Position numbers and translations under genes: made by a program. A stretch of 64,000 bases of DNA from Limnochordia bacterium (GTDB lineage Bacteria; Bacillota; Limnochordia; DTU080), in the NCBI GenBank assembly GCA_050951545.1, contig JBMNJG010000005.1, forward strand, positions 256,001-320,000, given 5' to 3'. Shown piece by piece: positions 24,629-36,186 of the stretch (positions within the stretch are counted from its first letter, which is position 1; the number at the start of each line of letters is the position of its first letter). The notes below the pieces were generated by a model that was not told the DNA's origin, ran no database searches, and saw only the letters and a list, made by a program, of their open reading frames with translations.

Positions 24629-25086
24629 ACAAACTCAGCGGCCGCCTTCTCGCTATATCGAGAAGCGCTTTTGCTTACTTTGCCCACCAGCCTGGTAATC
24701 AGCCTCTCGATGAAGCTCATCGTGGTCAAGTCCATCTCCCCGCCAAAAGCGGCCTTTGCCTTCGCCGCGTCAAGCAACTCCAGCGGATACGCAGCTTGCA
24801 GCTGCTTTTGTGCCTCCTCACCTTCGTGCCAGCAGCAGATGAAAAGACCCAGGCGCTTCTGCTTGAGCTCCTCGATATTCGCCAGGCAGAACTCCCGCAG
24901 TGCCGCGCTTACATGACCGAAGTATATGGCGCCGCCTACAATCACTGTGCCGAAAGGAGAGATATCGATGGCTGGCTCTTGCCGCAGATCTGCGAGAGCC
25001 ACCTCTCCAGGGAGCACCCGAGCCAGGGCCTCGGCATGGCGCAGCGTAGTCCCATGCCGCGTGGAATAGGCAATGAGCGTTCGCAT
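24601..25086 (-). CDS. Flavodoxin-domain protein (HemG/Flavodoxin_5-like)
   Basis: MRTLIAYSTRHGTT, VIVGGAIYFG, LGLFICC, AFGGEMD...SFIERLI; AAGGAG RBS before ATG 25086. Confidence 0.85.
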   Translation of the reverse strand: MRTLIAYSTRHGTTLRHAEALARVLPGEVALADLRQEPAIDISPFGTVIVGGAIYFGHVSAALREFCLANIEELKQKRLGLFICCWHEGEEAQKQLQAAYPLELLDAAKAKAAFGGEMDLTTMSFIERLITRLVGKVSKSASRYSEKAAAEFVQALQDPGR

Positions 25087-25215
25087 GTCATAGCTCCTTT
25101 TGACAGCATCTGTGTTCGACATAGATTCGACTGGTACCCTGTGGTACCTGCCTTGGGGCCAGAGGGAAAGCGTCATCGCTGCAGAATACCCCACCTGAGA
25201 AATGGGGGTCGAAAA

Positions 25216-26181
25216 GTGAAATTCCGCGCTTTGGGCAACACTGGCATGCAGGTGTCTGAGATCGGGCTGGGAGCTTGGCAAATAGGGGGACCTGTACGCG
25301 GCTACTTCGAGAAGCTAGGCTGGATCGCCCACGGCTGGGGCTCCGTCGATGATGCTGCCTCCATCAGGATGATGCACACGTTGGCTGATGTCGGCGTCAA
25401 TTTCGTTGATACTGCTGCCGTCTATGGCGCTGGCCACAGCGAAGAGGTTGTGGGTCAAGCAGTGAAAGGCAAGCGTCAGCAATGGATTATCGAGACGAAG
25501 GGCGGCGAGGGCTTTCACCAAGACGGTGTCAACTGGCGGGACTTCTCCCGGGCCAAACTGCTTAGCGAAATCGACGGAAGCCTGAGCAGACTAGGCACCG
25601 ATTACGTCGACGTTTATCTTTTGCATTCGCCCAGTGATGCCATATTCTGCCAAGGGGAGTGCCTCGAGGCTCTTGCGGAGATCAAGCAATCTGGCAAAGC
25701 GCGTTTCGTCGGTGCCTCGGTCTCCGGCAGCCAGGTGCCGTTTTGTGTGCAAACTGGGATCATGGACGTACTTCAGGTCCATGTCAACATTCTGAGCCCA
25801 GCGAGCACGGCTGAGAACCTGGCTCTGGCTGGAGACGCCGGCATAGGCATCGTCGCTCGAGGCGCCTTTGGCTCGGGGTTCTTTACAGGAAGCATCGATG
25901 CCACTACCGCGTTTTCGGAAAACGACCGGCGCAGCTGGCAGTCTGAACAGAGCAAGATAAGGTCAGCGACTGTTGCTCGTGCCTTTCAGTTTCTGGAGAT
26001 CCCTGGTCGCAGCCTGACCCAGAGCTATCTGCGCTACCTGCTTGCGCTCAAGGGTGTCTCCACGGTGATCGTCGGTTCGATGAACCTGCAACACATGCTA
26101 GAGAATGCTGCGACCCCCGACACTCCATTACTCACGCAACACGAACTGACGCGCATCGATGAGGTGCGATCCGTCCTGTGA
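25216..26181 (+). CDS. Aldo/keto reductase
   Basis: Starts at GTG 25216 (KFRALGNTGMQVSEIGLGAW); NFVDTAAVYGAGHSE, ETKGG, SLSRLGTDYVDVYLLHSP, GKARFVGAS. Confidence 0.92.
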   Translation: MKFRALGNTGMQVSEIGLGAWQIGGPVRGYFEKLGWIAHGWGSVDDAASIRMMHTLADVGVNFVDTAAVYGAGHSEEVVGQAVKGKRQQWIIETKGGEGFHQDGVNWRDFSRAKLLSEIDGSLSRLGTDYVDVYLLHSPSDAIFCQGECLEALAEIKQSGKARFVGASVSGSQVPFCVQTGIMDVLQVHVNILSPASTAENLALAGDAGIGIVARGAFGSGFFTGSIDATTAFSENDRRSWQSEQSKIRSATVARAFQFLEIPGRSLTQSYLRYLLALKGVSTVIVGSMNLQHMLENAATPDTPLLTQHELTRIDEVRSVL

Positions 26182-27557
26182 GGGCCTTCTCGTCTCTCCG
26201 TCGGCCTGAGTTCGCACCTGGGCATCAGGGGAGAGATAGGCGTAGTCGACACCTGTTACGTAGGCTAGATCCTTTTCTAATGCCACCAGATCGCTCCGAT
26301 CGAGCTGAGAGGTGGCGTTTTTGCCTAAGGCCATCACGACGTGTTTCATGTCAGCCACGGCTGATTTCAGATAGTTGGTCAGATTTCGGACCCCTGCCTC
26401 TACGTCGAAACGCTCCTTCAGCTGTCCTGAGTAGAGCACCAGCTCTGTGGGGGGCTCCCAAGGGACCGCCTTACTCATCTGCTCTGATACCAGCGCCAGC
26501 ACGGCCACTGTCCCGACGTAGATCAGCATCGGCCCCCAAGGCTAGGGCTTTCAGCATCTGTCCTGGTGTGCGCAGCCCTCCTGCAGCGATGATGCTCATC
26601 TGGTCTCCGAACACCAGCCTGCTCACAGTAGCGTACGCCGCGTGCGAGAGCAACGAGAGTCGGTAGCCCGACATCGTCCTGAAGCGTCGTCGAGCCACCG
26701 TGAGTACCTCCCTCGTGACCGTCGATAGTGACGAAATCCACGCCAGCTCTGATGGCGACCTCCAGCTCTCGCTCGAGATGATGTGTAGCGCATAGTTTCA
26801 GACCAACTGGCACGCCTCCTGCCTCTTCCCGCAGACGGGGTACCAGGGCCATGAAATCCTCAACGCAATTGACGCCTGACAGGCGCGTATGGATGACCGC
26901 ATCTTCTCCAGCCTTGAGCCCAAAGACCTCTCGAAAATCCTGGCCGATATCCCCGGCGAGTGTGCTCTGAGGAGTCGCCGCCTGCGCTCCCTGACCCAAC
27001 TGTATCTCGACGGCATCCAGTTGGCGCAGCTTCTCCGGAGAGTTCATCCAGCCACCTCGATTGTACTGACCAATGAAGTGCGCGGCAGCCTCACGCTCCG
27101 ATGGCAGCAACCCGGCTTCTCCAGAGTTGGTTGCCGTGTCCATCAGCGTGGCAGCCTTTGCCAAGGCCACCTTGGCGGCTTCGCTGAGCGCCCCGCCAAA
27201 AGACATTCCCGCGATTAGGATGGGAATGCCCAGCCTTAGCGGTTTCTGCGCGGCTGGTCCGATGACTACCGCAGTGTCGATGGAACTGGTCTCCTGTGTG
27301 GGGAACCGCCATAGATGCACAGGGTTAAACAGAAGCTTGTCCCACGCAGACAAAGGGATGATGCTACCGAAAGGCCGCTGGAGAGGCTTTCCTTGCTCGG
27401 CCCGCAACGCCGTCTCGACGACATTAGTCAGCCCCTCTTTTTGCGTGGTCGAGACAAGCTCGTAAAGATTCTCTGTATAGCGCTCGTTGACCAGAGTCCG
27501 CAAGAAAGAGTCAACCATCGCATCCGCCACTCGACGACTCAACCAAGAGAAAACCAT
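26128..27557 (-). pseudogene. FMN-binding glutamate synthase family protein, split by two +1 frameshifts (about 26607 and 26525)
   Basis: Three frames join: ...IAGMSFGGALS..TNSGEAG..EIQLGQGA..VGLKL..DGHEGGT..DVGLPT..GVR | DQMSIIAAGGLRTPGQMLKALALGADA | IYVGTVAVLAL...; may be a consensus artefact. Confidence 0.85.
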
Positions 27558-27681
27558 CCGACATCCCCCACCGCTTTTTGCTTAGCTTGCACATAGAGCT
27601 CTTCCCCTAACCCAAACGACACTCCCTCGGATCCTGCCCGTCGGGAGGATTTCGTCGCCACCGTGTCAAAAATACGTATCC

Positions 27682-29931
27682 ATGTCGAGGAAACGTAAAC
27701 GCAACCCAAGACCTCAGGCAGCACCTAAGGCACCCCGCTCCGCGTCTCGGCGCGATGCGGCGACCGTCGGCGCCTCCGGCTCGGATCCGACAGCGATCCT
27801 TCTCGAGGCACGCACTGCCTTCTCCCAGCAGAAATGGTCGAGCGTTGTGACATGCTCTCACCGCGCGCAACCGCGATTGTCAGCACTGGCCGAGCCAGAA
27901 AAAGCGGCCTGGGCGAAGCTGGTAGCAGAAGCCCATTTCCGCCTCGCCCTAGACTTCCTCAAGCGCGGACGCTTCAGGGCTGTCGTGGCAGAGCTCGAGA
28001 AGGCGCTCAACTGGCTCCCAGAAGACGGCATCTACCTCTACCACTTAGGCCTAGCCCATCATCGCCTCGGCCACTGGTCTGAAGCCTTGGAGGCGTACGA
28101 GCGGGCCTGGCAAGCGGAACCTTCCTGGCGAGTCGCCTACCACTATGCGCTGGTTGTCCTTCAGGCTGGCGAACGTATCTCGCGCGATCTGTGGGCCGCA
28201 GCACATAGGCGGCTAGTAGCTGCAGCACCCCCCAGCGCTGCGGCTCAGACGGCTATTGCTCGATTTGAGATGTGGAAACAGTTCTCCGAGGAACAAGCCC
28301 AAGGCGTTCAGTTAACGCCCTGGTGGCACGGCAGGGCCATTCCCGCCGCATTACGCGCCGAAGCTGGCTTCTTCAGCTTAGCAGTGGGCGATGCGGACGG
28401 GGCCGCTGCCGCATTCAAGAAGGCCGAAGAGCTATACGCTGCGGATCCTGCTGAGCAAGCCATAGACGACCATCAGCAGCGAATGGTCACCGCGGCGGCA
28501 CTCCTGGCGGCAACCGTGCGGGGGAAAGGGCGAAGTGTCTCGCGCACAGTCCAACAGGCGTCTTCCTCGCCTGCCCCCACTGGCCGAACACCGGACAGCC
28601 CTATTGAGACTCAGACTCTCTCATTTCTGGCCTGGGCCCTCTGGCGTAGTGGTTGGCTCTTGTGGCAGGGTGAACAGATCCGGTTCGCCGCACAGGCCTG
28701 GGAAGCAGCCAGGCGGGTTGCCCCGGACAACTACGCGATACATCATGCCCTGGCCTTGACCTACGAACGCTGCCACGAGGAAGCCGCCCTGGAGGCTTGG
28801 GAGGCCTTCGCCAACGCTATCTCGAACACCCGAAGCACCAATCCTGAGGAAAGGGCCTGGAACGCCCAAATGGCTACTCAGATCCACCTTCATCTCTGCC
28901 GACTGGCCATGCAGTGGCATATACCGCCCTTTGAGGCATGGTTCTCAGGCGCCCTACGCGGCGGTGTTCTTGATAGCCCAGAGCGCCTGGAGCTAGCCGA
29001 AATAGCTGCCACTGTCGGCGCTGAGCACATCGTCCGGCAGGCGTTGCAGCCTCTACGCAGACAGCTCGACGACGATCCAGAGCTCGCCCGCCGTGTAGCC
29101 CGCCTCTACGCAGTTGCGGAGATGCCCGGAGAGGCGAACCGGATCTGGGAAAGCCTGCGTCAGTCTTTTCCAGATGACACAGAGGCGGCTGCGGCCCTGG
29201 CCGACGCGTACTACGCCAAGGGCCTGGCAGCCATGAGTGGGAAGGGTAGGACACGCAAGGACCGGGCGCTACAGGCCTTCGAAGAGGCCCTGAGCTGCGA
29301 CCCTGGGCACGTGCCTGCCTTAGTGGCCGTGGCTGCTTGGCATAGCATGCACGGGGACTCCTCCGTATACGAGCAGTACCTGACGGAGGCCCTCGCTCTG
29401 TGCGAGGACCCCGGACAACTGATGGGGATTGCCGATGCCCTACTGGATTTCGGGCTGTTCGAGCAAGCAGCGGCCCTGCTTGAGCGGATGCTACAGCAAA
29501 GACCATCAGCACAGCTCCTGGGCCAGTTAGGCATCATCTACGTAGCGCATGACCGCGAGGACGAAGGGTTTGCACGCCTTGAACAGGCATGCAAAGAGGC
29601 TCATTACGACCTGGAGCTTTGTCTCGCCCTCGTTAGCGACCTTTCTAGCACCTGTGGGCCTAACGCGGCAGAGAAACTGGCCGTGAACCTGCTGTGGCAC
29701 CGCCCCAACTCCGCCGAGCTCTACCTTATGCTGGCCGCGTTATCTCATGTTCAGAATGACCTGCCGAAAGCTGAGCGCTATCTTAAGGAAGCCGACAGAC
29801 TAACCCGAAAAACGGGTGATACGCTGTTGCAGGAGGAAGTCGCAGCGATGAGAAACATCATCACACGGCCTCTACCGGCGAGGTTGGGCGAGCTCTTCGG
29901 GGAGGACTTTTCAGATGACGAGATCTGGTAA
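27682..29931 (+). CDS. Large tetratricopeptide-repeat (TPR) protein
   Basis: Repeated TPR patterns (AHFRLALDFLKRGRFRAVVAELEKALNWLPED; YLYHLGLAHHRLGHWSEALEAYERAWQAEP; ALQAFEEALSCDPGH; LYLMLAALSHVQNDLPKAERYLKEA). Confidence 0.85.
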   Translation: MSRKRKRNPRPQAAPKAPRSASRRDAATVGASGSDPTAILLEARTAFSQQKWSSVVTCSHRAQPRLSALAEPEKAAWAKLVAEAHFRLALDFLKRGRFRAVVAELEKALNWLPEDGIYLYHLGLAHHRLGHWSEALEAYERAWQAEPSWRVAYHYALVVLQAGERISRDLWAAAHRRLVAAAPPSAAAQTAIARFEMWKQFSEEQAQGVQLTPWWHGRAIPAALRAEAGFFSLAVGDADGAAAAFKKAEELYAADPAEQAIDDHQQRMVTAAALLAATVRGKGRSVSRTVQQASSSPAPTGRTPDSPIETQTLSFLAWALWRSGWLLWQGEQIRFAAQAWEAARRVAPDNYAIHHALALTYERCHEEAALEAWEAFANAISNTRSTNPEERAWNAQMATQIHLHLCRLAMQWHIPPFEAWFSGALRGGVLDSPERLELAEIAATVGAEHIVRQALQPLRRQLDDDPELARRVARLYAVAEMPGEANRIWESLRQSFPDDTEAAAALADAYYAKGLAAMSGKGRTRKDRALQAFEEALSCDPGHVPALVAVAAWHSMHGDSSVYEQYLTEALALCEDPGQLMGIADALLDFGLFEQAAALLERMLQQRPSAQLLGQLGIIYVAHDREDEGFARLEQACKEAHYDLELCLALVSDLSSTCGPNAAEKLAVNLLWHRPNSAELYLMLAALSHVQNDLPKAERYLKEADRLTRKTGDTLLQEEVAAMRNIITRPLPARLGELFGEDFSDDEIW

Positions 29932-30280
29932 TGATGCAGGAAACGAGAACCCCCTGGCCATCTTGGGCGTAGACCCCCGTCTTTCTGATGAAGAGTTGCG
30001 CCAGCGCTATGTTACGCTTGTCCGGCAGTACCCGCCCGAGCGTAACCGCGAGGAGTTCCGCCGCATCCGCAGTGCCTATGAGGCCTTGCGCAGACCAGCC
30101 GATCGAGCGCGGTATGCCTTGCAGCAAATGGCGGAACCCCCTGCGCTCTTTCCGGGGTCACCCGGCGAGCCACGAGGCCCTTTGGGGATCTCGCCTGCTT
30201 GGTGGCATATGGGCGATCCCTGGTCGGAATTGTTGCTGGACGAATTTGAGTCTGACTGCCGCGATCCCCTAGGGAAGTAG
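29915..30280 (+). CDS. Small J-domain-like (DnaJ-like) protein with YPPE in place of HPD
   Basis: NPLAILGVD..LSDEELRQRYVTLVRQYPPERNREEFRRIRSAYEALR matches J-domain helices I-III; overlaps the TPR gene by 17 bp. Confidence 0.8.
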   Translation: MTRSGNDAGNENPLAILGVDPRLSDEELRQRYVTLVRQYPPERNREEFRRIRSAYEALRRPADRARYALQQMAEPPALFPGSPGEPRGPLGISPAWWHMGDPWSELLLDEFESDCRDPLGK

Positions 30281-30335
30281 TGGGTGAAAGCAATTCCGAT
30301 CAATACACTCAAACTCTGGGGGGAAGCATGTCACG

Positions 30336-30977
30336 ATGTGGTGGAAACGACTATGGAGTAGCCGAAGCGAGAAAGCCTCGGCTCCCGCCAAGAAGCGGCG
30401 GCCACGCCTGCCTGAGCAACTGGCCGAGGTCGACCGAGCTCTGGCGCGCCTAGCACGTGAACAAGCCAAGGCCAACCTTCTATGGGAGCAATCATCGAAG
30501 CAGCAGGCTGAGCTCGTGGCTGGTCTTGAGAAGACACTGACGCAACAAGAGACGAACTACCGAGCGCTACTCGCCCAGGCCGAAGAGCGGGGGCGGACGC
30601 AGTGGGCACAGCGCCTCTTTCCGCAACTGCTTGCGTTCCTTGATGATCTGATGCAAGGGGCTGCAGCCATGGAGCAACAGGTCAACCAACAGCCAGCACT
30701 TGCCGAATGGGCTGGTGGAGTGCGCCGCCTCCACAACCGTGGTGAGGAGCTCCTCAGTCTGTGGAACGTGACACCCATACCCGCTACAGGGCAACCTTTT
30801 GACCCCAGCGTGCATCACCCGGTCGATGTGGTGTTTTCGAGCGAGGTCACACAACCCATCGTCGTGGCTGAGGTTCAACGTGGGTACCGTCAGAACGGAG
30901 AGCTAATTAGGCAGGCCACAGTGGTGGTGGCCAAACCAGCGAACTCGACGACGGGCACATTGGAGGCCAGTGTATGA
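30336..30977 (+). CDS. grpE: Nucleotide exchange factor GrpE (paralogous copy)
   Basis: Coiled-coil N-half, LLAFLDDL, VTPIPATGQPFDPSVHHPV, VVAEVQRGYRQNGELIRQATVVVAK. Confidence 0.88.
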   Translation: MWWKRLWSSRSEKASAPAKKRRPRLPEQLAEVDRALARLAREQAKANLLWEQSSKQQAELVAGLEKTLTQQETNYRALLAQAEERGRTQWAQRLFPQLLAFLDDLMQGAAAMEQQVNQQPALAEWAGGVRRLHNRGEELLSLWNVTPIPATGQPFDPSVHHPVDVVFSSEVTQPIVVAEVQRGYRQNGELIRQATVVVAKPANSTTGTLEASV

Positions 30978-32710
30978 GCAGAACAGTCGGTATCGATTTC
31001 GGCACAACCAACTCGGTGATTGCTGTAGTGGGTGCGGATGGCCGACCGCGAGTGTTGGAGCACGAGGGCGAACGGATTATCCCCTCGGTGGTGGCTATCG
31101 ATGAGCAGGGAAGACTGTTAGTGGGCCGTCAGGCTAGAAACTACCTGCCGCTCGACCCAGACAACGCCGTTCACTCCGTGAAGCGCTTCATAGGCACAGA
31201 CCAACGTTTCACCTTGCGCGGCAAGGAGTACTCGCCGCAGCAGATTGCCGCCCTGATCATGCGCACACTGCGAGACTTGGCGGAATCTGCCCTGGGCGAG
31301 CCAGTTAAGCAAGCGGTGATCACCGTACCTGCTTACTTTACAGACCAGCAGCGCATCGCCACAAAGGAGGCGGGTGAGCTAGCGGGTCTGGACGTCGTGC
31401 GCATCATCAATGAACCCACCGCGGCCGCCCTCGCCTACGGCATAGACCAGAACACGGGCCAGCGCGCATTGGTGTATGACTTAGGTGGAGGTACCTTTGA
31501 CGTTTCTTTGGTTCAGATCGAGGAGGGCTTCGTCGAAGTCTTGGCTACGGCGGGCAACAACCGCCTGGGAGGTAACGACTTCGATCAGCGCATCGTTGAC
31601 TATGTCAGCGACCGCTTCTCTCGAGATGAGGGCTTCAACATCCGCCAGGACCCACGCGCCTTGGCTCGCCTTTCCGCCAGTGCAGAACAAGCGAAGATCC
31701 GACTGTCGGACCATCCCTACGCTCGCCTGCGGGAAGACTTCCTAGCTACGCTGGATGGGAAACCACTTCATCTCGACCAGGAGCTCTCACGCACTCGCTT
31801 TGAAGAACTGATCGCCGATCTCTTGACAGACACAATCGTCAGTGTGAACCAAGTCCTACGCGATGCCGATTGCCGAGCCAAGGATATCGACAAAGTCTTG
31901 CTTGTGGGTGGCTCCACACGCATCCCTGCTGTCCGCCACATCCTGGAGGCGGAGCTTCAACAAGAGCCCTCGGGTGATGTCCATCCCGACGAATGTGTGG
32001 CTCTCGGGGCCGCAGTGCAGGCAGCAATAGTCGACGGTCTAGATGTGGATGCGGTCTTGGTGGACGTCACCGCCCACTCATTGGGCATTGCGGTAGCTGT
32101 TGACCTCGGTACACGTCTGATTAGCGACCGCTACAGCGTGATCATTCCCCGCAACTCAGTGATTCCCACAGAGAAGGCGGAGGTCTACACCACCACCTAC
32201 GACAACCAGAGGGCCGTCGATATCAGGGTGTTCCAAGGCGAACACCATACGGCCTCCAGCAACGAACGTCTGGGCGAGTTTCGCCTCGAGGGTGTTCCAC
32301 CTCGTCCGGCAGGTGGTGTGGAGATTATCGTGACGTTCTCGATGGACGTAGACGGCATCCTTCAGGTGACCGCCGAGGAACGTAGCACAGGCAGTAGTGC
32401 GAACATCACAGTGCGCGATATGCGAGCCCGTATGAGCGCCTATGAGAAAATGGCAGACGAAGCGGCGGTTACAGAGCTATGGGATCCAGACGCATCCGGT
32501 ACCGCGGCTACCCAGGCCCTTTTGCGCCAGGCCAAGAGCGTGGCCGAGGAGCAACAAGGGGAGATCGCTGCCGAGATACTGGCCATTGTTGCCGAGATTG
32601 AGGCGCTACTGGATGAGGATCTTCCTGATCCGGAAACCCTGGCCGATCTGGAGGATGAGTTGCTGGAAATACTGGAAGGTGCAGAGGAAAACGAGGAAAA
32701 CGACGAGTAG
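30974..32710 (+). CDS. Hsp70 family (DnaK-like) chaperone, non-canonical paralogue
   Basis: GIDFGTTNS, VITVPAYF, RIINEPTAAALAYG, VYDLGGGTFDVS, LGGNDFD, LVGGSTRIP, DVTAHSLG, IIPRNSVIP, FQGE; ATGA overlap with grpE. Confidence 0.95.
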   Translation: MSRTVGIDFGTTNSVIAVVGADGRPRVLEHEGERIIPSVVAIDEQGRLLVGRQARNYLPLDPDNAVHSVKRFIGTDQRFTLRGKEYSPQQIAALIMRTLRDLAESALGEPVKQAVITVPAYFTDQQRIATKEAGELAGLDVVRIINEPTAAALAYGIDQNTGQRALVYDLGGGTFDVSLVQIEEGFVEVLATAGNNRLGGNDFDQRIVDYVSDRFSRDEGFNIRQDPRALARLSASAEQAKIRLSDHPYARLREDFLATLDGKPLHLDQELSRTRFEELIADLLTDTIVSVNQVLRDADCRAKDIDKVLLVGGSTRIPAVRHILEAELQQEPSGDVHPDECVALGAAVQAAIVDGLDVDAVLVDVTAHSLGIAVAVDLGTRLISDRYSVIIPRNSVIPTEKAEVYTTTYDNQRAVDIRVFQGEHHTASSNERLGEFRLEGVPPRPAGGVEIIVTFSMDVDGILQVTAEERSTGSSANITVRDMRARMSAYEKMADEAAVTELWDPDASGTAATQALLRQAKSVAEEQQGEIAAEILAIVAEIEALLDEDLPDPETLADLEDELLEILEGAEENEENDE

Positions 32711-32785
32711 TCTGACCACATGGCATGGGGTGTTCAGCTGGAGACGCGATCTTGCAGCGATGGTGCGCTTCGAGGTGAACGCTAA

Positions 32786-33643
32786 ATGAGATCCTCTGTT
32801 GAGTGGAACGAGTTTGTGACCAGCCACTTCATGCAACACCCGGTATTCGTAACCTACCATCGGTGCCAGCGTCCCCAGGTTACTCCATTGCATAGGCAAT
32901 CGGGTATTGAGTTACACCTGACCCATAGCGGTCGCGGCTCTTTTCACGTTGACGACATGGTGATGGTGCAACGGGGCCGCCAACTGGTGATCGTCGGCCA
33001 GCTGGTTGCCCACCAGGTCTTCGCCGATGTGCAGTCCGGCTATACACGCTCAGTCATCTGCCTAGACAAGCCCGTGCTCGATCAGATCACCACGATCTGC
33101 GGACCCGAGCTTCTATCCGGTCTTGTTCCTAGCAGCATCAACGCTGCCACGCTCCCTTGCGAAGTCTGGCAAGAAACAGAGGGCCTGGTCATGCGCATGT
33201 GCTGGGAATGGGAGCATCGGCTGCCAAACTGGCAGCACGCCATCTTTGGCCACCTGATGAATCTGCTTGTCCAACTACAGCGAAGCGAATCACAGGCGAC
33301 TCATTGTGACGCCGGTACGGACCTGATAAGTTGCTGCCTGGAGATTGTCGAGAGACAGCTCGATAGCGACCTTAGCGTAGAGTGCTTGGCCGACATGCTC
33401 GCTGTCTCTCCGAAGTATTTATCGAGCCTCTTCTCACGTACTATCGGTGTCAACCTCAGCGACTATGTGTGGGACAGGCGGATGGCCATGGCGAGGCGCT
33501 TGCTTGCCAGCAATCCGCGCTTGTACATCCGCGAAGTGGCCAGGCGCTGCGGATTCAAGAGTGCGGCTCACTTCTCCCGCCGCTTTGGCCAAGCCACTGG
33601 CTTAACGCCCTCCTCGTACCGAGCACAGCTTCACAGCTCATAA
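32786..33643 (+). CDS. AraC family transcriptional regulator
   Basis: Cupin-like N-terminus (LHRQSGIEL..HQV); LSVECLADMLAVSPKYLSSLF...IREVARRCGFKSAAHFSRRFGQATGLTPSSYR. Confidence 0.92.
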   Translation: MRSSVEWNEFVTSHFMQHPVFVTYHRCQRPQVTPLHRQSGIELHLTHSGRGSFHVDDMVMVQRGRQLVIVGQLVAHQVFADVQSGYTRSVICLDKPVLDQITTICGPELLSGLVPSSINAATLPCEVWQETEGLVMRMCWEWEHRLPNWQHAIFGHLMNLLVQLQRSESQATHCDAGTDLISCCLEIVERQLDSDLSVECLADMLAVSPKYLSSLFSRTIGVNLSDYVWDRRMAMARRLLASNPRLYIREVARRCGFKSAAHFSRRFGQATGLTPSSYRAQLHSS

Positions 33644-34905
33644 CCCCTGGCACGCATCTCCTTAGACACTGTCTCGCCGTCAACTGCATGAAAACCCACC
33701 GTCGTCGCCCGCGCCATACTGGCGGCTAGACCAACGGCCTCGCCCATAGGGACCGCGTTACCCGTAACCCGATAAGACGCATGAGCGAAAAAGTCGCCGC
33801 TGATACAACGCCCAGCTAGAGCAAGGTTGGAAAGATCGCGGGCCACCAAAGCTCGGTACGGAATATGGTAAGGCTTACTGCGAAGCCCATGGTTGGCGTA
33901 GCCCGTGACAGCACTGCGCTCTAGAGCGTGCACATCAACCCCAAACCGCACGAGGCACACCCCGTCACCAAAGCGCCGGCCAGCCACGACATCGTCAGCC
34001 GTCACGTGGTAAAGTCCCCGCACGCGTCTGCCCTCACGCAGACCGATATGAGCGGCAGTAGCGACCAGGCGCGCATCATCCCATGCAGGTAGTTTGCGCA
34101 ACGCCTGGACCGTTAGGTACAACTCCTTGCGAGCACGCACCGTGGCCTGAGTGATCTCGTCGGCTGAGTCGCAACGTACGTCGTACTCGTGGTTGATCAT
34201 CAAGCAATGGAGCTCCGGATGGGGTAAGGGAAACAGTGAAGGTGACTGGTAGCTGGGATCGATGCCCACAGAGTTAAGCATGGCGCGAAAGCGCTCCTTG
34301 TCCCCCTCTGCCCGCGTTCCCGAAATCTCCTTCGGCACCCCGCTGATGATAGCGAATAGCGTGGCGGGTTGAGTCTTCCCACTCACTGGATGTCCGTGAT
34401 CATACGCACACTGCGCATAGGCCGCTAGATCGCCGTTGCCCGTGCTATCCACGAAGAGGGGTGCGGTGAAGGCCTCACGGCCGCTGGGGCTCTCTGTCAC
34501 GATAGCTCTCAGTAAGCCATCCTCACGTATAGCTGCCACCACGCGGGTATGCAAACGCATGTGTACTCCCGCCTCGTTACACAGATCTTCTAGCAGGACC
34601 TTCATAGTCTCCGGATCGTAGAGAAAATCGGCGCGCTGCGAGCGGGGGCGCCTGGCCCCCGCCGCCTCCAATCGCTCACCTATCTCCTCCACGAGCCCAC
34701 ATTTGCCTGTCCCATCAAGCACCAGGCACAGCAGACCCGACGTCCAGATGCCTCCCAAGCAGCCCTGGCTCTCTACCAGAAGAACTCGCAACCCCGAGCG
34801 ACCCGCAGTAACAGCCGCGGCTACGCCCGCAGGTCCGGCCCCACACACAATGAGATCAAAGTCACCAGCAACGTTAAGAGTCCTTGCTGGTTCCACTAAC
34901 TGCAT
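33631..34905 (-). CDS. FAD-dependent oxidoreductase (FAD_oxidored family)
   Basis: DLIVCGAGPAGVAAA, LGGIWTSG, FVDSTGNGDLA, GLREGRRVRG, YHIPYRALV, NLALAGRCISGD. Confidence 0.9.
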   Translation of the reverse strand: MQLVEPARTLNVAGDFDLIVCGAGPAGVAAAVTAGRSGLRVLLVESQGCLGGIWTSGLLCLVLDGTGKCGLVEEIGERLEAAGARRPRSQRADFLYDPETMKVLLEDLCNEAGVHMRLHTRVVAAIREDGLLRAIVTESPSGREAFTAPLFVDSTGNGDLAAYAQCAYDHGHPVSGKTQPATLFAIISGVPKEISGTRAEGDKERFRAMLNSVGIDPSYQSPSLFPLPHPELHCLMINHEYDVRCDSADEITQATVRARKELYLTVQALRKLPAWDDARLVATAAHIGLREGRRVRGLYHVTADDVVAGRRFGDGVCLVRFGVDVHALERSAVTGYANHGLRSKPYHIPYRALVARDLSNLALAGRCISGDFFAHASYRVTGNAVPMGEAVGLAASMARATTVGFHAVDGETVSKEMRARGYEL

Positions 34906-34923
34906 ACCCTGCGACCTCCGCTC

Positions 34924-36186
34924 CTACTGCGTTTCGTAGATGGTACGCCAGTTGCCCATGGCAAACGCCTGGGCGTTATCCAGTGCCGCTTCAGGGGTCT
35001 CCTTCCCAGTAAACACGTTATCGACTGCCGTCCGGACAGCGTCTTGCATGGTTACCTTCATGGGGCTCATGTCCTCAACCACAATGCGCTCTGCATGGAA
35101 TAGCGTCTCTATGAACCACCGCTCAAGCAACGGCATCTGCCTCGACTTGGCAAGAAGAAACTCCTGATTCGCGGTAAATGCCCCGGCCTTGTCCCACATC
35201 GTGTTGATGGCTTCCCTGTCACTGAGGAGATAGCTGATCAGGCGTATGGCCTCCGCCGGCTTCTTGCTGCCCGTCGGAATACCTATGCTCCAGGCACGCC
35301 AGCGCTGGGTGAGCTTGCCATTGATATGTGGCGCCCAGGTGGCGTCGACTTCCTTGCCCAGCTGCCTCTGCAGGTTTCCGCCTATAAGATGAGATCCGTT
35401 GATGATCATCGTCGTTCTGCCTGAGGTGACTGAAGGGCTGAACTGGAGGATGCCAGGGAAAGGATCCACAAAGAGCTCCTTCATCGTGGTTATGGCAGAA
35501 GCCAAAGTACGGTTGCCGCCTAGATTCGGTCTATAGCCATCCTGGTATAGCACCACGTCAAACAAAGACTCCCAGGTATAGGACACCGTATGCCAGGTCT
35601 CCTTGGGGTGGAGCCCCACTCGAGTCAATCTGCCATCTGCATCCATCAGGGTCAGCTTCTTACTGAAGGCCCCTATCTCAGCCCACGATGGCGCTCGGTC
35701 ACGAGCTGGGCGAATAACGCCTGCCTCATCGAAAGCTTCTGCGTCGTACACCAGGGAATAGCTCGGCGCGATATCCCAAAATGGCAAGGTGTAGCGCGTC
35801 CCTGCATACATGCCCAGTCTTTCATAGCCACGGGCTAGGTCTTTGACCTGGAAACCGCCATGCGCCTTCAGTAAAGGATCCAGTGGACGCAGTAGTCCTT
35901 TCATACCCAAGACCGAATACTCGCCACCGTGCATATCGGCCACATCAGGTGGTGACCCCGCAGCGATAGCCGTCATCAGCTTCTCCCCGCCCGAGCCCGT
36001 GACCAGTCTGACCGAAAGACCTGGGTTCTTAGCTGCAAAATCGCCCAGCACTTCGCGCAACACCTCACCCTTGGCCCCGCCAAAGGTCACCCAGAACTCA
36101 ATCTCCGTTGAAACCGCAGCGCTAGCCACACCCGATAGAGCGACAATCGTCATCAGCGCCAGAAATAAACGGGTCAAACGATGCAT
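34924..36186 (-). CDS. ABC transporter sugar-binding protein (SBP family 1)
   Basis: Signal peptide ASA/A, EIEFW, LMTAIAAGSPPDV, LVYDAEAFDEAGV; GGAGG RBS. Confidence 0.85.
   Translation of the reverse strand: MHRLTRLFLALMTIVALSGVASAAVSTEIEFWVTFGGAKGEVLREVLGDFAAKNPGLSVRLVTGSGGEKLMTAIAAGSPPDVADMHGGEYSVLGMKGLLRPLDPLLKAHGGFQVKDLARGYERLGMYAGTRYTLPFWDIAPSYSLVYDAEAFDEAGVIRPARDRAPSWAEIGAFSKKLTLMDADGRLTRVGLHPKETWHTVSYTWESLFDVVLYQDGYRPNLGGNRTLASAITTMKELFVDPFPGILQFSPSVTSGRTTMIINGSHLIGGNLQRQLGKEVDATWAPHINGKLTQRWRAWSIGIPTGSKKPAEAIRLISYLLSDREAINTMWDKAGAFTANQEFLLAKSRQMPLLERWFIETLFHAERIVVEDMSPMKVTMQDAVRTAVDNVFTGKETPEAALDNAQAFAMGNWRTIYETQ

Follow-up and report, generated by a model that had tools for sequence, protein, structure and literature searches.

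Why would a bacterium that already encodes a housekeeping DnaK system carry a second set of Hsp70 chaperone genes, and which proteins would that set serve? The question is raised by four consecutive genes in a 64,000-nucleotide stretch of a Limnochordia genome (GenBank assembly GCA_050951545.1, contig JBMNJG010000005.1, positions 256,001 to 320,000; hereafter, the window). The genes, collectively termed the cassette, encode a tetratricopeptide repeat (TPR) protein, a small J-like protein, a GrpE and an Hsp70. We consider it reasonably probable that they form a complete, self-contained Hsp70 machine that operates beside the housekeeping DnaK and is dedicated to one or a few clients, with the TPR and J-like proteins acting as a split co-chaperone. 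Our best reading is that the cassette is a horizontally spread, client-dedicated Hsp70 system. The genes and their first junction lie at these window positions:

27682-29931, forward strand: gene for the TPR protein (749 amino acids [aa]; open reading frame [ORF] list, Pfam TPR families)
29915-30280, forward strand: gene for the J-like protein (121 aa; ORF list, Pfam DnaJ)
30336-30977, forward strand: grpE (213 aa; ORF list, Pfam GrpE)
30974-32710, forward strand: hsp70 (578 aa; ORF list, Pfam HSP70)
29915-29931, forward strand: 17-base pair (bp) overlap between the stop of the TPR gene (TAA, 29929-29931) and the start of the J-like gene (ATG, 29915), read from the sequence

The four genes form one operon. 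The 17-bp overlap between the TPR and J-like genes suggests that their translation is coupled. The J-like gene ends with TAG at 30278-30280 and grpE begins with ATG at 30336, leaving a gap of 55 bp, and an ATGA sequence at 30974-30977 forms a 4-bp overlap shared by grpE and hsp70. Furthermore, each downstream start is preceded by a purine-rich, GGAGG-like stretch resembling a Shine-Dalgarno sequence. The ORF list and the reading of the junctions thus agree with the co-oriented, tightly coupled arrangement described in a first-pass annotation of the window. The same annotation noted the absence of hrcA, of the heat-shock element CIRCE (controlling inverted repeat of chaperone expression) and of a zinc-finger dnaJ from the cassette. 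Indeed, no CIRCE was present in the entire 64-kb window with up to three mismatches allowed, and the J-like protein has the Pfam DnaJ domain alone, without DnaJ_C or Zn-finger domains. Because it has no CIRCE, the cassette is under a control separate from that of the heat-shock operon.

We located the canonical chaperone genes by searching the rest of the genome (3.64 Mb in 16 contigs, 93.9% complete). They lie on another contig (C3) in the order lepA, hemN-like (hemW), hrcA, grpE, dnaK, dnaJ with a Zn finger, prmA and an RNA methyltransferase gene (rsmE), which is typical of Firmicutes. A perfect CIRCE inverted repeat (L008:10194-10220) is located 52-78 bp upstream of hrcA. The HSP70 profile recovered the canonical DnaK as two pieces (712 and 96 bits) and the cassette Hsp70 at 534 bits. 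The genome also has two GrpE and two J-domain matches, one of each in the cassette and one in the CIRCE/hrcA operon. Because the canonical, CIRCE-controlled operon is on a different contig, the cassette is a second full Hsp70 set beside it. This is what the first-pass annotation had proposed when it described a second Hsp70 machine with its own exchange factor and J-like partner; it had conceded that the idea would fail if the cassette held the only Hsp70 of the genome, which has two. Similarly, each of the five other genomes found to carry the cassette holds exactly two Hsp70s. Contig C11 has two further, weak matches to the HSP70 profile (25202-25498 and 359253-359546; 42 and 44 bits). The ORFs concerned, 347 and 365 aa long, probably encode other ATPases of the actin fold, for example MreB.

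The cassette Hsp70 and GrpE have the sequence features of working chaperones. The Hsp70 scored 544.1 bits against Pfam HSP70 and has a complete ATPase domain, linker (D-x-[VI]-L-V-D-V) and beta-basket. To read its functional sites, we used the diagnostic residues given in section 12 of PMC8215388. Residues K70, E171 and T199 are kept in every cassette Hsp70 row, as predicted for an ATPase-competent member of the superfamily, and the J-contact stretch R167-N170 is nearly kept (K-M, with a few V/L variants). The GrpE-signature loop (DnaK 285-297) has the length of the DnaK loop. Furthermore, most rows retain the basic residue [RK]55 and E267 of the first cleft salt-bridge pair (55/267); in the second pair, R56 is replaced by N and E264 by R or A. 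The signature loop together with at least one cleft salt bridge predicts that the cassette Hsp70s depend on GrpE. The cassette GrpE scored 77.1 bits against a Pfam cut-off of 25.8 (PF01025) and, when aligned with the housekeeping GrpE of the genome, keeps the long N-terminal helix and the G..FDP..H motif of the beta domain. All the NCBIfam GrpE equivalogs scored below cut-off (best, 46.7 versus 137).

The Hsp70 shares 47% identity with the DnaK of the same genome, and its nearest solved structures are DnaKs (2v7y/4ani, E 1.4e-136). It scored below the cut-offs of the NCBIfam DnaK equivalogs NF001413 and TIGR02350 (574.2 versus 648 and 560.2 versus 822.55, respectively) and of NCBIfam HscA (453.1 versus 708.55). 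The substrate arch of the cassette Hsp70s is variable at positions 404 and 429 (A404 and T429 in the window). Across the cassette clade, position 429 is T, I, V, S, L, M or A, unlike the alanine (A429) that the available text of PMC8215388 describes as highly conserved in prokaryotic DnaKs. The lid is also about 13 residues shorter in the alignment, and the protein ends in a distinctive segment:

32639-32707, forward strand: clade-specific C-terminal helix and acidic end of the Hsp70 (LADLEDELLEILEGAEENEENDE; alignment by eye)

By eye, the motif [DE]xL[IL][DE]LL[YF/E]..[DE][DE] can be followed in this segment in most of the 23 Hsp70s of the cassette clade, with those of genome G471 and metagenome locus L220 deviating; canonical DnaKs end in VVDADF-type tails.

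Could the cassette simply encode a general back-up chaperone, or a DnaK paralogue used at particular temperatures, growth phases or stresses, with broad clients and the TPR protein merely as a regulator? The ATPase, linker, beta-basket and GrpE-dependence features, which are complete as judged from the alignments, would suit such a role, and so would a regulation that, with no CIRCE, is unlike that of the heat-shock operon. The placement of the Hsp70 as a sister to canonical DnaK rather than to HscC (below) is also compatible with it, and DnaK paralogues that have a GrpE to themselves are found in other bacteria (for example, MXAN_6672/6671 in the available part of PMC11019930). However, a general chaperone would be expected to have the A429 arch, a full lid and a class A or B DnaJ, whereas the cassette arch varies, the lid is short and the sole J partner is a minimal x-P-E domain tied to a TPR protein of about 750 aa. 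The cassette is, moreover, missing from congeners. We therefore regard a back-up role as unlikely, though still conceivable.

The Hsp70 phylogeny separates the cassette proteins from the canonical ones. We used a quick IQ-TREE method on 49 rows comprising 6 cassette and 6 canonical Hsp70s of the carrier genomes, E. coli DnaK, HscA and HscC, 6 DnaKs from a contig scan and 28 metagenome Hsp70s. The cassette-type Hsp70s formed one clade of 23 rows, with a Shimodaira-Hasegawa-like approximate likelihood-ratio test (SH-aLRT) support of 99. This clade was sister (SH-aLRT 97) to a 14-row clade (SH-aLRT 100) containing the canonical host DnaKs, E. coli DnaK and HscA, and the contig-scan DnaKs. A tree constrained to unite the cassette clade with the six host DnaKs was 100.6 log-likelihood units worse and was rejected by the approximately unbiased (AU) test (p-AU 1.4e-4). 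A constraint restricted to the twelve host sequences cost 246 units, a figure that is partly trivial in that the metagenome cassette rows were left on the other side. The sequences thus place the cassette Hsp70s in a clade of their own outside canonical DnaK, and the branching with canonical DnaKs that the first-pass annotation had named as a potential refutation is not seen with those of the carrier genomes. The contig scan itself, run with a single Hsp70, kept 80 loci that were ordinary DnaKs (43-47% identity, almost all cyanobacterial) and was uninformative on the cassette. We dropped an argument for horizontal transfer from tree incongruence, as the canonical DnaK tree itself departs from kinship.

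The J-like protein is unusual in its triad. It scored 39.9 bits against Pfam DnaJ (PF00226; cut-off, 27.8), and its structural model has helices at residues 13-17, 25-38, 45-57 and 61-70. The J domain spans residues 13-70 approximately, with a predicted local distance difference test (pLDDT) score of about 90; the C-terminal half, an extension, is modelled with low confidence. The triad that defines J domains is replaced as follows:

30032-30040, forward strand: codons of P40-P41-E42, in place of H-P-D (alignment with E. coli DnaJ and the host DnaJ)

In the same alignment, the loop after P-P-E is 6 residues shorter than in either DnaJ. P41 and E42 are invariant in all 29 cassette J-like proteins compared and the preceding position varies. 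We also scanned metagenomes with the J-like alignment, calling ORFs and domains (hidden Markov models, HMMs) ourselves, and recovered 79 loci, 58 of which have a small J-like gene (250 aa or less). The triads in these 58 proteins were PPE (30), SPE (15), TPE (9) and others (4). None had HPD, which leaves them outside the functional definition of the J domain (H-P-D between helices II and III). When the same pattern was searched on viral contigs, all six matches were ordinary HPD domains and none had cassette genes nearby. Thus, the search pattern itself does not force x-P-E, although the ordering of matches by their likeness to the query does favour relatives. For comparison, HPE occurs in about 1% of J-domain proteins according to the available text of PMC10410713, which names DjlB and DjlC.

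A second group of metagenome loci (L146, L161, L168, L169, L192, L196, L202, L204, L207 and L218) has a sister architecture in which an Hsp70 is followed by a large J-domain protein. These J proteins have 295-1142 aa and a mostly P-P-E-T-H motif, and they are often fused to TPR repeats. The J domain is N-terminal in 17 of 20, and 9 of 20 match the profile of the cassette TPR family (proteins of up to 852 aa). Such fusions hint that J and TPR work together. The Hsp70s of this architecture fell outside both the DnaK and the cassette clades, nearer to E. coli HscC. A search for fused long forms of the cassette J-like protein retrieved one 469-aa protein, a blank in that search being weak evidence.

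The altered triad raises the possibility that the J-like protein is a brake or an adaptor, and that the Hsp70 is an ATP-regulated holdase or sensor or borrows the housekeeping DnaJ. Pam16, a J-like protein without HPD, provides a model for such a role. The histidine is absent in all 58 small members, at a position that varies, and the only other J protein of the genome is DnaJ, which could dock on the DnaK-like R167-N170 surface predicted for the cassette Hsp70. On the other hand, the invariant proline and glutamate (29 of 29) point to a selected contact rather than decay, and the strict operon coupling of the J-like, grpE and hsp70 genes fits a full chaperone cycle. Moreover, E. coli DjlC, whose triad is HPE, is reported to activate HscC. 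We consider a brake or borrowed-DnaJ arrangement quite improbable, and favour a J-like protein that serves the client-dedicated machine as a co-chaperone.

The fourth component, the TPR protein, matches Pfam TPR families (e.g., TPR_17 at 43 bits). Its AlphaFold model (pLDDT 87.6) is all-helical, with a single continuous solenoid of about 19 helical repeat pairs at residues 36-740 and disordered ends. The N-terminal end is highly basic:

27682-27753, forward strand: polybasic N-terminal tail of the TPR protein (MSRKRKRNPRPQAAPKAPRSASRR; from the translation, with residues 1-32 low-confidence and unstructured in the model)

The opposite end is a short acidic tail whose last residue is W. To define the family, we hand-picked 35 proteins (about 650-840 aa, with few matched stretches) from the top 150 profile matches, which in this exhaustive search were swamped by giant TPR proteins, and built a 36-row alignment. 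A word-based search gave only 5 proteins and understates the family. Full-length members have about 700-800 aa. By eye, a similar K/R-rich start is present in approximately 29 of the 36 members, and in most full-length metagenome members, and many members have acidic-aromatic C-tails. The conservation of the polybasic N-terminus in relatives and a 749-aa record in the Joint Genome Institute (JGI) data favour the long form of the protein. The entry in the ESM Atlas starts at residue 56, a later start call (window 27682-27849). Foldseek searches with the model retrieved generic long TPR scaffolds only (Ctr9, Ski3, TTC7B, OGT, Naa15 and Tom70, at template modelling [TM] scores of 0.12-0.29). An ESM Atlas search with the protein similarly gave generic TPR scaffolds below 0.5 TM and no functional lead. 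From the gene coupling, the joint inheritance (below) and the J-TPR fusions of the sister architecture, we infer that the TPR protein is the adaptor or sensor for the client.

Is the four-gene arrangement conserved outside this genome? When 40 relatives were searched with the TPR protein, two genomes from other genera of the same family (G005 and G004) matched, as did, weakly, one of the same class (G018); tblastn found all four genes in the same order in the three genomes. Of 95 genomes of the class, four (the window's own included) gave a full-length match to a six-row TPR profile, at 818-993 bits; the runner-up scored 100.5 bits. We treat the second-tier matches in the class (40-100 bits) as unrelated TPR proteins: none of 26 such loci, inspected for about 1.5 kb on each side, has J, GrpE or Hsp70 genes. 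Across the phylum, sampled evenly with 401 genomes, matches at E 1e-35 or better came from three, namely the window's genome and two others (G471 and G363) that carry the four genes in order. Two congeners (95% and 91% complete) and one confamilial genome (93%) showed no cassette and have one Hsp70 each. The distribution is, therefore, as patchy as the first-pass annotation had anticipated.

The metagenome loci provide a broader view of the synteny. Where the neighbouring gene could be tested, a family TPR gene immediately preceded the small J-like gene in 38 of 46 loci, GrpE was downstream in 32 of 43 and Hsp70 was downstream in 28 of 30. All four genes were present in order in 26 of the 58 loci with a small J-like gene, including the near-duplicates L151/L152, L164/L165 and L174/L179. 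Together with the five other genomes, these loci answer the doubt, voiced in the first-pass annotation, that the four genes might not be syntenic elsewhere. In L162/L175, L220 and L212, a TPR gene, a small J-like gene and an Hsp70 gene of the cassette clade occur with no GrpE detected between them.

The four proteins have also been inherited together. Across 13 cassettes, their identity matrices are correlated (r 0.86-0.95), a level reached in none of 2000 permutations. As read from the sequences, this correlation is a mark of joint inheritance, not of binding. The mean identities over the same cassettes are 22% for the TPR protein, 29% for GrpE, 37% for the J-like protein and 52% for Hsp70. 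With a profile of the J-like protein, 8000 candidates were scored and at least 368 clusters (90% identity) reached E 1e-10 or better. The few named clusters are 'J domain-containing protein' of metagenome-assembled genomes of Anaerolineae/Ardenticatenaceae, or the generic 'CbpA' of JGI, and the Atlas clusters nearest to the J-like protein are mostly from Chloroflexota and Planctomycetota. Thus, with its named J-like relatives mostly in Chloroflexota, the module is not special to Firmicutes.

In a congener (G002), flavodoxin-like DNA is joined almost directly to DNA of the FAD oxidoreductase gene. On its contig C326, DNA resembling window positions 24698-25087 (approximate) lies about 180 bp from DNA resembling positions 33613-36131, both at 72-73% identity. 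The alignment is suggestive only of a segment of about 8.5 kb in the window (25088-33612, cassette included) that has no counterpart in G002. Such a variable segment would hold the aldo/keto reductase gene, the Glu_synthase-domain gene, the cassette and the AraC gene. In the window, the immediate flanks of the cassette are the genes for the Glu_synthase-domain protein and the AraC regulator. Upstream are also genes for a YitT membrane protein, a flavodoxin and the aldo/keto reductase, and downstream those for an FAD oxidoreductase, an SBP_bac_1 solute-binding protein and a Gfo/Idh/MocA oxidoreductase. The earlier description of the cassette as inserted among sugar genes is only partly apt.

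The neighbourhoods of the other loci bear on an anti-phage or conflict role, which the first-pass annotation had listed among the options. The TPR protein would then sense an invader protein, and the Hsp70 cycle would act as a threshold switch or would remodel or hold a viral or host target. The patchy, accessory distribution and the divergence of the TPR protein, the most variable component, are as expected of such systems. There are also precedents for the use of Hsp70 parts in conflict systems in the available texts on GAP1-N2 GTPase systems (Kaur et al. 2020), which have Hsp70, GrpE and DnaJ/TPR fusions in firmicutes, actinobacteria, chloroflexi and planctomycetes (PMC7159879), on EACC1-protease modules fused to DnaK-like domains (PMC12642450) and on the Hsp70-like CnuD of CoCoNuT (PMC11090510). 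Furthermore, half of the TPR family members (18 of 36) match Pfam TPR-S. However, the matches in the window itself to TPR-S (18.2 versus 27.6) and EACC1 (16.4 versus 23.6) were below cut-off, and we did not use them. Three of the four cassette proteins had no match in PADLOC-DB 2.0; the sole match was a coiled-coil-like one of GrpE to LmuB (15.5 bits, E 0.0013), which was not used either.

A Pfam scan of 71 neighbours of the cassettes returned mostly metabolic or housekeeping families and a minority of defence or mobile types. The latter include AbiEii (L185, L198), SNF2 helicases (L195, L212), an IS-type (insertion sequence) gene (L158), PIN (L220) and EVE, which a conflict role would accommodate. 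Against such a role, the cassette has no effector, GTPase, protease or nuclease, no flanking gene family recurred across the loci apart from near-identical contigs, and none of the six viral-contig matches carries the cassette. There was also no Pfam match to a GTPase or FNIII among the 71 neighbours, which sets these loci apart from GAP1-N2 systems. We consequently see a conflict function as rather unlikely, and this option of the first-pass annotation is not supported. The cassette of G005 (L094, 7715-12915) adjoins a PRiA4_ORF3-like gene, a ResIII/SWI2-SNF2 helicase gene and a DNA methylase gene, a restriction-like or mobile context unlike that of the window.

Sequence archives contain close matches to the cassette. 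Contigs from four metatranscriptome libraries (coded as four studies) match all four cassette genes, most at 99% identity or above and the remainder at 95-99%. One contig (29790-30023) bridges the TPR/J overlap and another (30162-30348) runs over the J stop into the 55-bp gap. No contig matched the flanks at 27300-27681 and 32839-33000, which is not evidence of transcript ends. Matches at 31470-31506 were set aside because they carry loose ends and stem from Hsp70 genes of other organisms. Fifteen DNA runs, taken from anaerobic digesters, bioreactors, landfills and sludge, contain at least half of the sampled words of the stretch.

How could the four proteins work as a client-dedicated Hsp70 machine? 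In the mechanism that we propose, the 749-aa TPR solenoid would be the targeting scaffold and, together with the small J-like protein, would select the target as a split class-C J-domain co-chaperone. The polybasic tail may anchor the TPR protein on an anionic partner such as a nucleic acid, the ribosome or a membrane. The x-P-E loop of the J-like protein would dock on the R167-N170 surface of the cassette Hsp70 and trigger ATP hydrolysis, so that the Hsp70 clamps the client; the cassette GrpE would then reset the Hsp70. The physical contacts, the stimulation of the ATPase by x-P-E, the roles of the tails and the nature of the client are all deduced rather than observed. As an accessory unit, the module would pass from lineage to lineage; it is most frequent in Chloroflexota and occurs sporadically in the window's phylum. 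Speculatively, the conserved tail of the cassette Hsp70 is a candidate docking site for the TPR protein, an idea that, like the anionic anchor, draws on the analogy with the binding of Hop and CHIP to the EEVD tail of Hsp70.

Several points weigh against this interpretation. The histidine of H-P-D is missing in 58 of 58 small J-like proteins and, because the H33Q variant of DnaJ is inactive, stimulation of the ATPase by a J-like protein without the histidine is not assured. No conserved neighbour hints at a client. The patchy, accessory distribution and the rapid evolution of the TPR protein, the fastest-evolving part of the cassette (22% mean identity versus 52% for Hsp70), are typical of conflict systems too. 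The tree was built with a quick method and has some long branches, and the groups compared in the AU tests were named after the tree had been seen. Finally, the RNA-library contigs cannot prove transcription, for DNA can occur in such libraries.

A more elaborate version of the mechanism, which we think doubtful, likens the cassette to the TPR co-chaperones of eukaryotes and makes of it a gated switch. The solenoid would sit on the C-terminal helix of the Hsp70 and, by its polybasic tail, on an anionic structure (ribosome, nucleoid or membrane), and present the histidine-less x-P-E J domain to the Hsp70 only with a particular protein in its groove. If true, ATP hydrolysis would be licensed by the client rather than by a constitutive H-P-D, and the 'essential' histidine of the J domain would be dispensable in an entire natural family. 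The switch could be a surveillance or remodelling device for one large assembly, and it might be tied to the filamentous, multicellular lifestyles of Chloroflexota and Planctomycetota, where relatives are commonest.

Whichever mechanism applies, the cassette is a recurrent and tightly conserved four-gene Hsp70 unit (6 genomes, 26 complete metagenome loci and at least 368 J-like clusters). It lets one ask, in a natural setting, whether a J domain can drive an Hsp70 when the histidine of H-P-D is absent, and it is a possible bacterial case of TPR-guided Hsp70 targeting. As a compact, portable module, it also lends itself to expression and dissection in laboratory strains. The first-pass annotation knew of no characterised function for the architecture, and our full-text literature search likewise found no description of the four-gene unit (the supplements of J-protein and DnaK censuses, which it did not cover, might list the proteins). 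Neither a source that covers DnaK derivatives (PMC13580251) nor any of the other papers cited here describes the unit in the available text.

To our knowledge, specialised Hsp70 systems with known roles are few, the main bacterial examples being HscA/HscB, HscC/DjlBC and SglK. The cassette resembles the canonical hrcA-grpE-dnaK-dnaJ operon in its Hsp70, GrpE and J components and in the conservation of the catalytic residues, the J-contact residues and the GrpE-signature loop. It differs in having no hrcA, CIRCE or class A DnaJ, an extra TPR gene and an Hsp70 from a separate clade. Like HscA-HscB, it may pair a minimal J protein of its own with an Hsp70 that serves a single client. However, HscA has no GrpE-signature loop, HscB keeps HPD and there are no isc genes near the cassette, so the Hsp70 is not of the HscA type.

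The hscC locus of E. coli (ybeQ-ybeR-djlB-ybeT-ybeU-djlC-hscC) is similar in several respects. Its Hsp70 is specialised, short-lidded and about 550-580 aa long. The dedicated J proteins (DjlB and DjlC) combine an E-ending triad (HPE) with the same short loop and an F..[IL]R.AYE.L helix III, and the locus also encodes the TPR-like Sel1-repeat proteins YbeQ and YbeT. The parts of this locus suggest that an atypical Hsp70 was combined with a repeat protein and an E-ending J triad before the cassette arose. Two DUF1266 proteins are encoded beside djlB and djlC (L132, E. coli K-12 676000-690000). HscC, however, is 36% identical to the window Hsp70 and branches far away, so that only the length fits an HscC type, and DjlB and DjlC keep the histidine that the cassette J-like protein has lost. 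In addition, according to the available text of PMC8215388, the GrpE signature is missing from HscC, for which no use of GrpE is expected, whereas the cassette keeps the loop and has its own grpE.

The MXAN_6672/MXAN_6671 pair of Myxococcus xanthus, which we take to be grpS-sglK, is another parallel. Described as GrpE-DnaK2 in the available text of PMC11019930, it is a specialised, non-essential DnaK paralogue co-transcribed with its own GrpE, the pairing also found in the cassette. There, however, none of 15 J proteins neighbours either dnaK gene, so the pair has no linked J-like gene. GAP1-N2 systems likewise combine Hsp70 and GrpE with DnaJ-domain or TPR partners, as far as the available part of PMC7159879 describes them, but they are built on GAP1, GTPase and FNIII-repeat genes, none of which is found beside the cassette.

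In eukaryotes, DNAJC3 and DNAJC7 are TPR-J proteins, and Hop and CHIP bind the EEVD tail of Hsp70. The cassette may, by analogy, use TPR and J to aim its Hsp70, with the conserved acidic C-terminal motif of the latter as the candidate dock for the TPR protein. It differs in that TPR and J are encoded by separate genes and the tail motif is another one, and no homology was found beyond the generic folds. Set beside these systems, the cassette is best placed among the specialised Hsp70 systems of bacteria.

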